Origin: an uncultured Clostridia bacterium
Lineage (GTDB): Bacteria; Bacillota; Clostridia; TANB77; CAG-508
Assembly: GCA_934169575.1 (NCBI GenBank)
Contig: CAKPOA010000004.1
Span: 11,852 to 75,851 of the forward strand
Length of the DNA: 64,000 nt
Direction of reading: 5' to 3'
The notes beneath the pieces were generated by a model that saw nothing but the letters and a program-made list of their open reading frames with translations, had not been told where the DNA came from and did no database searches. Below, one piece after another: positions 20,194 through 20,429 of this stretch (position 1 is its first letter; every line of letters starts with the position of its first letter). The position numbers were made by a program, and so were the translations under genes.

Positions 20194-20367
20194 TCATTTA
20201 GTACTATGGAAAGCATTTTTAGTCTGCCCTGAATCATGTGCACTTATGCATTCTATGCAGGCAGAAGAACCCCGCTCTCCCGGAGCTGGGCAAAGACGTG
20301 GAGAATTGCCAAAAGGACAATTGTTAACACGTTCTTTTTTCATTGGTCTTGAATAAATCTTTTCCAA
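20194..20367 (-). CDS. Small (57 aa) Cys-containing hypothetical protein, below the ORF-track length cutoff
   Basis: Hand translation: MEKIYSRPMKKERVNNCPFGNSPRLCPAPGERGSSACIECISAHDSGQTKNAFHSTK; TTG start 8 nt after AAAGGAGGAG; own promoter and terminators; codons locally GC-rich. Confidence 0.6.
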   Translation of the reverse strand: MEKIYSRPMKKERVNNCPFGNSPRLCPAPGERGSSACIECISAHDSGQTKNAFHSTK

Positions 20368-20400
20368 TTTTTGCTCCTCCTTTCTAGGACTGATTTTACT

Positions 20401-20429
20401 ATTATATCATAATTTTATTCAGATGTAAA
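20401..20429 (-). promoter_or_regulatory. Promoter TTTACA-17 nt-TGaTATAAT driving the small minus-strand gene
   Basis: Minus strand: TTTACA (plus 20424-20429), TATAAT (plus 20401-20406) with an extended -10 TG. Confidence 0.65.

Follow-up and report, generated by a model that had tools for sequence, protein, structure and literature searches.

A previously uncalled small gene of very AT-rich gut Clostridia probably encodes a zinc-ribbon-like protein of a tiny, lineage-restricted family

Small zinc-ribbon and Cys4 proteins of bacteria, such as the anti-sigma factor CsfB/Gin, YacG and the DksA-type fingers, are cytoplasmic, count fewer than 70 residues and carry about four cysteine ligands, with a CxxC knuckle where a helix begins. 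They act by binding a partner protein or a nucleic acid. A zinc ribbon is also present in Elf1/ELOF1, the eukaryotic and archaeal transcription elongation factor 1. In Clostridia, the SCIFF and ranthipeptide precursors are likewise small and rich in cysteine, and their C-terminal part is conserved. Finally, some small proteins are encoded by dual-function sRNAs, examples being SR1/SR1P of Bacillus, RNAIII/hld of Staphylococcus and SgrS/SgrT. Here we describe a locus that shares traits with each of these systems and compare it with them.

The locus lies in a 64,000-nucleotide stretch of DNA from an uncultured Clostridia bacterium, which is referred to below as the window. Its elements are listed in Table 1. 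Taken as a whole, it is best explained, with a probability that we put at roughly 60%, as a genuine monocistronic protein-coding gene whose product resembles a zinc ribbon and binds a partner. According to this reading, which was drawn from sequence comparison and folding, the gene would be transcribed from a near-consensus promoter of the housekeeping type and translated from a strong ribosome-binding site, and transcription would end at two tandem hairpins, the first of which (T1) would enclose the stop codon. The core of the protein would fold as a small metal-binding module similar to a zinc ribbon, and the protein would act by binding a macromolecular partner, its C-terminal tail being part of the contact surface.

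Table 1. Elements of the transcription unit of the small gene (minus strand, 20130-20461), in window coordinates
Element	Position	Strand	Details
Upstream repeats TTCCAT / TTCCTT	20446..20461	-	Phased, in T-tracts; ~17 nt 5' of the -35 box
Sigma-70-type promoter	20401..20429	-	TTTACA (20429-20424), 17-nt spacer, TG-extended TATAAT (20409-20401)
Shine-Dalgarno sequence AAAGGAGGAG	20374..20383	-	Direct reading of the sequence
CDS of the 57-residue protein MEKIYSRPMKKERVNNCPFGNSPRLCPAPGERGSSACIECISAHDSGQTKNAFHSTK	20194..20367	-	TTG start at 20367, TGA stop at 20196-20194
Local intra-CDS hairpin UCUGCCU...GGGCAGA	20223..20265	-	Predicted; encloses codons 37-46
Hairpin T1	20170..20221	-	20-pair stem, stop codon in the loop, followed by UUUUU; from folding
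Bidirectional terminator T2	20132..20164	both	13-pair hairpin flanked on either side by T runs; from folding and sequence

Homologs of the 57-residue protein are few. A word-indexed protein search returned P0001, a protein of 57 residues with 61% identity that is encoded on a syntenic contig (L014), and three more, P0003, P0004 and P0006 (57 to 58 residues), came from a profile search that covered 1.84 billion representative proteins exhaustively. A six-frame profile search of genomes recovered a divergent copy of 67 residues, at locus L045 in genome G385. P0002 and P0005, eukaryotic proteins with C2H2 repeats, were matched via their "APxERxxFACxxC" repeats and were judged to be chance matches. 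Scans of genome, viral and metagenome collections with protein patterns and degenerate DNA patterns gave just an identical strain copy (L015), no homolog was found at the DNA level among 60 relatives, and the protein of the window itself is absent from a collection of 15 billion proteins. The genome holds no second copy of the small gene, which rules out a fragment of a tRNA or tmRNA and a repeat of an integrating element.

Pfam, NCBIfam and PHROGs contained no matching family, and a literature search for the motif strings of the family found them in no paper. In the gene tables of 24 and of 6 contigs of the species of the window, the locus is a gap without any listed gene; automatic gene callers skip it on account of its shortness, its TTG start and its atypical codons. 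A reading of this DNA made earlier from the sequence alone (the sequence-only reading) had proposed a real but unannotated small gene for a cysteine-containing protein of a family that it did not recognize, and the family-library searches agree with this proposal. Judged by sequence comparison, the locus is a real, previously uncalled small protein gene that founds a tiny lineage-restricted family.

The 57-codon frame is very probably translated, because the frame itself is conserved, the indels keep its phase, the differences are concentrated at third positions and invariant residues vary in their codons. For these comparisons we used six distinct sequences, that is, the window and five homologs (P0001, P0003, P0004, P0006 and L045), which form 15 pairs; the homologs are 36 to 61% identical to the window protein. 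The sequence-only reading had made its case depend on the frame being conserved in homologs, and a single open frame of 57 to 67 codons is indeed kept in all six sequences. The DNA alignments of the homologs have gaps in multiples of three, and TTG starts line up with ATG starts. L014 begins with ATG where the window has TTG, and promoter, leader and Shine-Dalgarno sequence are almost identical in the two; the two indels within the frame measure +3 and -3 nt, and both frames stop at the same place. Eight of the 14 differences in the conserved core of this pair are synonymous third-position changes, and Nei-Gojobori estimates of dN/dS are about 0.2 for the whole frame and 0.18 for the core.

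The wider comparison gave the same picture. The pN/pS ratio was 0.29 to 0.72 in all 15 pairs, with pS saturated, and the differences among the six sequences were distributed over codon positions 1, 2 and 3 as 204, 185 and 337. Of the 12 invariant residues, 11 differ in their codon; Ala52, for instance, is encoded by GCT, GCA, GCC or GCG. Within the species of the window, nine strain-level contigs encode an identical protein and show one synonymous change. Compared to the flanking proteins (76 to 93% identity), the small protein evolves faster (about 60%). On the opposite strand, the antisense frames of the homologs are open sporadically and none is conserved, which is in agreement with the earlier view that the plus-strand ORF at 20138-20356 is a mirror artefact. 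Overall, these comparisons show a coding gene under purifying selection, with conserved expression signals and a narrow distribution.

The product is hydrophilic throughout its 57 residues and has four cysteines, and its 16 N-terminal residues are variable. It has no signal or membrane segment, and since there is no run of hydrophobic residues, a type I toxin or membrane peptide was ruled out. The core reads C17-P-F-G-N-x4-C26-P-A-x4-G33-x3-C37-x2-C40-x2-A43, and the protein ends in A-F-H-S-T-K/R. F19, N21, C26, G33, C37, C40, A43 and the terminal A-F-H-S-T, followed by K or R, are invariant in the six sequences, and this includes H54 (6/6). C17 is found in five of the six, L045 having cysteines at positions 20 and 22 instead. 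The first knuckle is accordingly CPFG in five sequences and RPFC in L045, and only the second knuckle is an intact CxxC.

A profile search of PDB sequences aligned the family with the zinc ribbon of Elf1/ELOF1 (8b3d_M and 1wii_A), a metal-binding core of similar size, at a marginal E value of 0.008 to 0.017. The motifs come in the same order, CPFCN...C...G..sC..C..eF in Elf1 and CPFGN...C...G..aC..C..aF in the family, the common pattern being C-P-F-x-N, a cysteine 4 to 5 residues further on, and then G-x2-[AS]-C-x2-C-x2-[AE]-F. However, whereas the first knuckle of Elf1 is CPFC, the family has a glycine in the place of the second cysteine in five of the six sequences and hence no canonical CxxC...CxxC set of ligands; for this reason we do not regard it as a member of the Elf1 family. 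In addition, the family did not match the Elf1-type ribbon model PF05129 in Pfam at E values up to 10, its invariant AFHST[KR] C terminus has no counterpart in Elf1, and it is bacterial and lineage restricted, unlike Elf1. The similarity may be convergent.

The likeness to CsfB/Gin, YacG and the DksA-type fingers consists in small size, about four cysteines and a CxxC knuckle. No sequence relationship to these proteins was detected, and the spacing C-x8-C-x10-C-x2-C, with one CxxC knuckle only, is unlike that of the small bacterial Cys4 proteins. Pfam zinc-finger models gave no match with a meaningful E value, and AlphaFold, given the six sequences, returned a model of low confidence (pLDDT of 52.8) with a helix at residues 34 to 45 only. 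We lean, by a little, towards metal binding by a zinc-ribbon-like module, for which Cys26, Cys37 and Cys40 together with either Cys17 or His54 are the likely predicted ligands. We also infer that the protein binds a macromolecular partner, which the conserved tail at its C terminus would help to contact.

The signals for expression are conserved, too. Promoter, Shine-Dalgarno sequence, TTG start and 57-codon frame had all been named in the sequence-only reading, and all of them were found on the minus strand where it had placed them. The promoter scores 11/12 with its TG extension and is the top site of the region. Across loci, the mean identity of the DNA columns is only about 65%, and nonetheless all six keep both the promoter hexamers and the Shine-Dalgarno sequence: CTTTAC at -35 and TG.TAT.AT at -10 are invariant in the five aligned loci and are also found in L045, and GGAGG precedes the start in 6/6 loci (as GGAGA in L042). 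In one strain variant, the spacer of the Shine-Dalgarno sequence is 1 nt shorter, and the sequence itself is undisturbed.

Upstream of the promoter, the pattern TTCCAT-N5-TTCCWT is found at the same position in five of the six homologous loci (window, L014, L041, L042 and L043) and is absent in L045. Genome wide, this pattern was not enriched (8 matches versus 4 for a control pattern), which rules it out as a regulon motif. The repeats may be an UP element, an activator site or a response-regulator site. At the other end of the gene, the hairpin overlapping the stop codon and the bidirectional terminator behind it, both described in the earlier reading, are real. T1 has a folding energy of -20.4 kcal/mol in the window copy (z = -4.7), and none of 200 shuffles folded as well; T2 is also kept in L014 and is common to the small gene and the convergent gene described below.

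Carriers make up 2 of the 338 species of the genus. Profile searches covered 401 genomes from the order, 338 from the genus and 401 from the class, and the sole true match was G385; the matches at the level of the class were chance ones that fell in other reading frames of large genes. The small gene belongs to the accessory genes of a small subclade within a single genus of uncultured gut Clostridia that are very AT-rich. In all the loci that had enough flank to be scored (window, L014, L041, L042 and L045), it is convergent to a gene for a 312-residue protein (19186-20124, plus strand in the window). This neighbor is single copy in 60 of 61 genomes of the order, with 45 to 79% identity in other species, and as a core single-copy gene it is ruled out as a stranded plasmid or ICE gene and as one half of a mobile pair with the small ORF. 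Its Replic_Relax match in Pfam is below threshold (24.1 bits versus a cutoff of 25.3 bits). Between the window and L014, the 312-residue protein is 93% identical and the glycosyltransferases are 76 to 79% identical. Among carriers, the identity of the 312-residue protein to the window copy is 80 to 93%, and it is at most 79% in the closest noncarriers. The pattern of carriers fits a single gain in a small subclade, as far as these identities indicate.

The flank on the other side is variable. The window, L014 and L041 have a cluster of glycosyltransferases there, and G385 has a giant ORF of more than 2,300 residues that is divergent from the small ORF (L072 1-6909, minus strand, contig C38); the 420 residues of the giant ORF that were searched had no Pfam match. 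We made two further observations on this side of the gene. Some strains (loci L061 to L064) have an insertion of 109 nt at the equivalent of window position ~20462, just 5' of the promoter of the small gene. With an inverted repeat in its interior, ATATGTGTATGAAA...TTTCATACACATAT, this insertion has the appearance of a miniature mobile element or repeat element. In L015, which is from another strain, at ~1020-1643 (within the equivalent of the window gene at 20546-21490), the GT2 glycosyltransferase gene is broken after about 165 codons and is followed by an ORF of 139 residues that contains ...CPDHIHMLVKIPPK... and may be a transposase of the Y1 type of IS200/IS605 elements.

The base composition of the gene stands out from its surroundings, with a GC content of 0.49 at 20200-20299 compared to 0.15 to 0.25 in the flanks. 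As a reference for codon usage, we took 723 long ORFs of the same genome (G000; 1.25 Mb, 25.9% GC) in windows of 56 codons. GC3 is 0.25 in the small gene and 0.107 ± 0.05 in the genome windows (top 1.2%), and a CAI-like index is 0.444 compared to 0.757 ± 0.087 (bottom 0.4%), so that the atypical, GC-rich codons noted earlier are borne out. Among the rare codons present are CGG (0.3% of Arg codons), CGT, which occurs twice, CCG, GCC and GGC. The GC excess is found mostly at codon positions 1 and 2 (GC2 of 0.54 versus 0.29), and the content in Pro, Gly, Ala, Arg and Cys accounts for about half of it or more. The homologs share this trait: GC3 is 0.16 to 0.50 in all of them, versus about 0.11 in the genes of the window genome, arginine is mostly encoded by CGN, and rare GC-rich codons are kept in every homolog despite saturated synonymous divergence. 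Protein function alone does not explain this persistence.

As a side observation on decoding, ARAGORN found 29 tRNAs in G000, and their Arg anticodons are just ACG, CCU and UCU, with no CCG. The small gene has its CGG codon at position 32, as does L014. The assembly also comes without Ala, Asn and Ile tRNAs, and the tRNA set is therefore incomplete. We dropped the idea of CGG as an unreadable codon on account of this incompleteness and of a CGG/CGA ratio that is like that of other pairs of codons ending in G and A.

A dual function of the transcript, an option that the sequence-only reading had also named, would account for the rare GC-rich codons. In addition to the protein, one or several functional RNA hairpins would then lie inside and at the end of the coding sequence, where they could be a stability element, a site of processing or protein binding, or a brake on translation. 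We regard this as unlikely, and the data for and against it are as follows. The native coding sequence folds better than its synonymous-codon permutations in 6/6 homologs (z = -1.5, -3.9, -0.5, -4.1, -3.4 and -1.4), compared to a z of -0.47 ± 0.98 for control windows from genes of the same genome, and the folding excess is clear in three of the six. A hairpin core of 7 bp at codons 38 to 45 is kept in five of the six loci with five different closing pairs; its covariation score was reached by 2 of 500 shuffles, and 92.9% of the cells pair, compared to 12 to 62% with a slid partner. In its extended form, this internal hairpin is very strong in L014 (z = -4.5), L041 (z = -8.2) and L043 (z = -2.8). 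In the window copy, however, the 7-bp core is broken and the internal hairpin folds no better than shuffles (z = 0.03).

Codons 50 to 56 form the 5' arm of T1, the hairpin that encloses the stop codon, and between the window and L014 its stem is kept by compensatory changes, U-A to C-G and C-G to U-A. A hairpin that encloses the stop codon has a z of -6.8 in L014 and -3.2 in L045 and is not significant in L041, L042 and L043. Together, the six homologs give a weak consensus fold (-12 kcal/mol, with a covariation term of -0.17). Moreover, the hairpin arms consist in part of the commonest codons of conserved residues (GCA UUU), so that some of the complementarity exists because of the protein sequence, and shuffle tests overstate the support when six related sequences are used. 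A pairing of the Shine-Dalgarno sequence with a GCNUUYC motif that is conserved towards the 3' end of the gene was rejected, as it showed no covariation and 182 of 500 shuffles were as good. Overall, the data are suggestive, rather than decisive, of selection on mRNA structure, and they are weakest for the window copy.

The covariance search that the sequence-only reading had recommended was run with Rfam 15 and gave no match at gathering score in the feature; at E values up to 10, there were just chance matches to miRNA and sRNA families that were driven by the hairpins and lay far below thresholds. In the window as a whole, the sole match at gathering score is a DUF3800-I RNA at 52068-52193 on the plus strand (68.5 bits versus a cutoff of 44.2). 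Since there is no Rfam match and no gene follows downstream on the same strand, 6S RNA, SRP RNA, a riboswitch and a T-box were rejected; the 6S RNA of this genome is on contig C12 at 37675-37871 (minus strand, 72.6 bits). The locus is similar to SR1/SR1P, RNAIII/hld and SgrS/SgrT in that its transcript is short and monocistronic, is served by a promoter and a terminator of its own, contains a small ORF and is conspicuously structured. However, it does not match the Rfam models of SR1, RNAIII and SgrS, and unlike these RNAs, its transcript is almost all coding and has no conserved unpaired seed region.

A more specific form of this idea, to which we assign rather poor odds, combines a new family of Elf1-like degenerate zinc ribbons with an AFHST[KR] docking tail, a selected GC-rich hairpin at about codons 35 to 49 and the terminator hairpin around the stop codon in one transcript of two functions. 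If it were true, the hairpins would be an autoregulatory binding site for the protein or would serve a choice between the 3' ends at T1 and T2 that is coupled to translation. Either role would explain why rare GC-rich codons are found in genomes with a GC3 of about 11%.

The atypical codon usage, the presence in just 2 of 338 species of the genus and a divergence that is faster than that of the neighboring proteins would also be expected of a recent foreign import or a decaying orphan without function, with codons from a GC-richer donor. We consider this highly improbable. Purifying selection was seen in each of the pairwise comparisons, no homolog or strain has a broken frame, and promoter and Shine-Dalgarno sequence are conserved. 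Furthermore, the synonymous sites are saturated and GC3 is still above the level of the host, and no homolog was found in phage or plasmid sequences and no donor was identified. As to its origin, for which the sequence-only reading had suggested horizontal acquisition, the gene could be foreign, or it could have been invented locally and GC-rich codons then selected in it.

There is still less to be said for a RiPP precursor (sactipeptide, ranthipeptide, lanthipeptide or thiazole type) with a C-terminal core rich in Cys, Ser and Thr, an identity that the sequence-only reading had entertained and that we think very improbable. The product is indeed small and rich in Cys and Ser/Thr, and its C-terminal part is conserved while the N terminus is variable; together with its occurrence in Clostridia, these are the traits that liken it to the SCIFF and ranthipeptide precursors. 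However, its cysteine pattern differs from theirs, and no maturase is encoded nearby, the neighbors being glycosyltransferases (the giant ORF in G385) and a core winged-helix gene. No transporter or immunity gene is adjacent either. We also examined co-occurrence with maturases, as had been suggested together with this identity. The genome of the window, which is 100% complete, has no SPASM domain, whereas the noncarriers G015, G005 and G004 do, so that SPASM domains do not co-occur with the gene; the genome contains no YcaO, and a search for LanC-like proteins, for which the control was silent, gave no match in it.

Last, a purely noncoding structured sRNA with an accidental open frame, which the sequence-only reading had also put forward as a possible main identity, is hardly credible: the GC-rich island in an AT-rich intergenic region does have its own promoter and terminator, and the whole 271-nt unit has a z of -4.5, but this value comes from the two terminal hairpins, the 5' untranslated region and coding body of the window copy folding no better than shuffles (z = -0.79), and the weak consensus fold, the lack of an Rfam match and the four signs of translation given above all stand against it.

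We thus return to a protein-coding gene with a zinc-ribbon-like, partner-binding product as the best explanation of the locus. Its very narrow distribution limits its practical importance. It is nevertheless a concrete case of a selected and well-signaled small gene that standard pipelines overlook. Because its C-terminal tail is invariant and its codons have stayed atypical, it is also a tractable case in which to ask how small cysteine-containing proteins arise and are kept in reduced, extremely AT-rich gut genomes, and whether mRNA structure can hold synonymous sites against a strong mutational bias.
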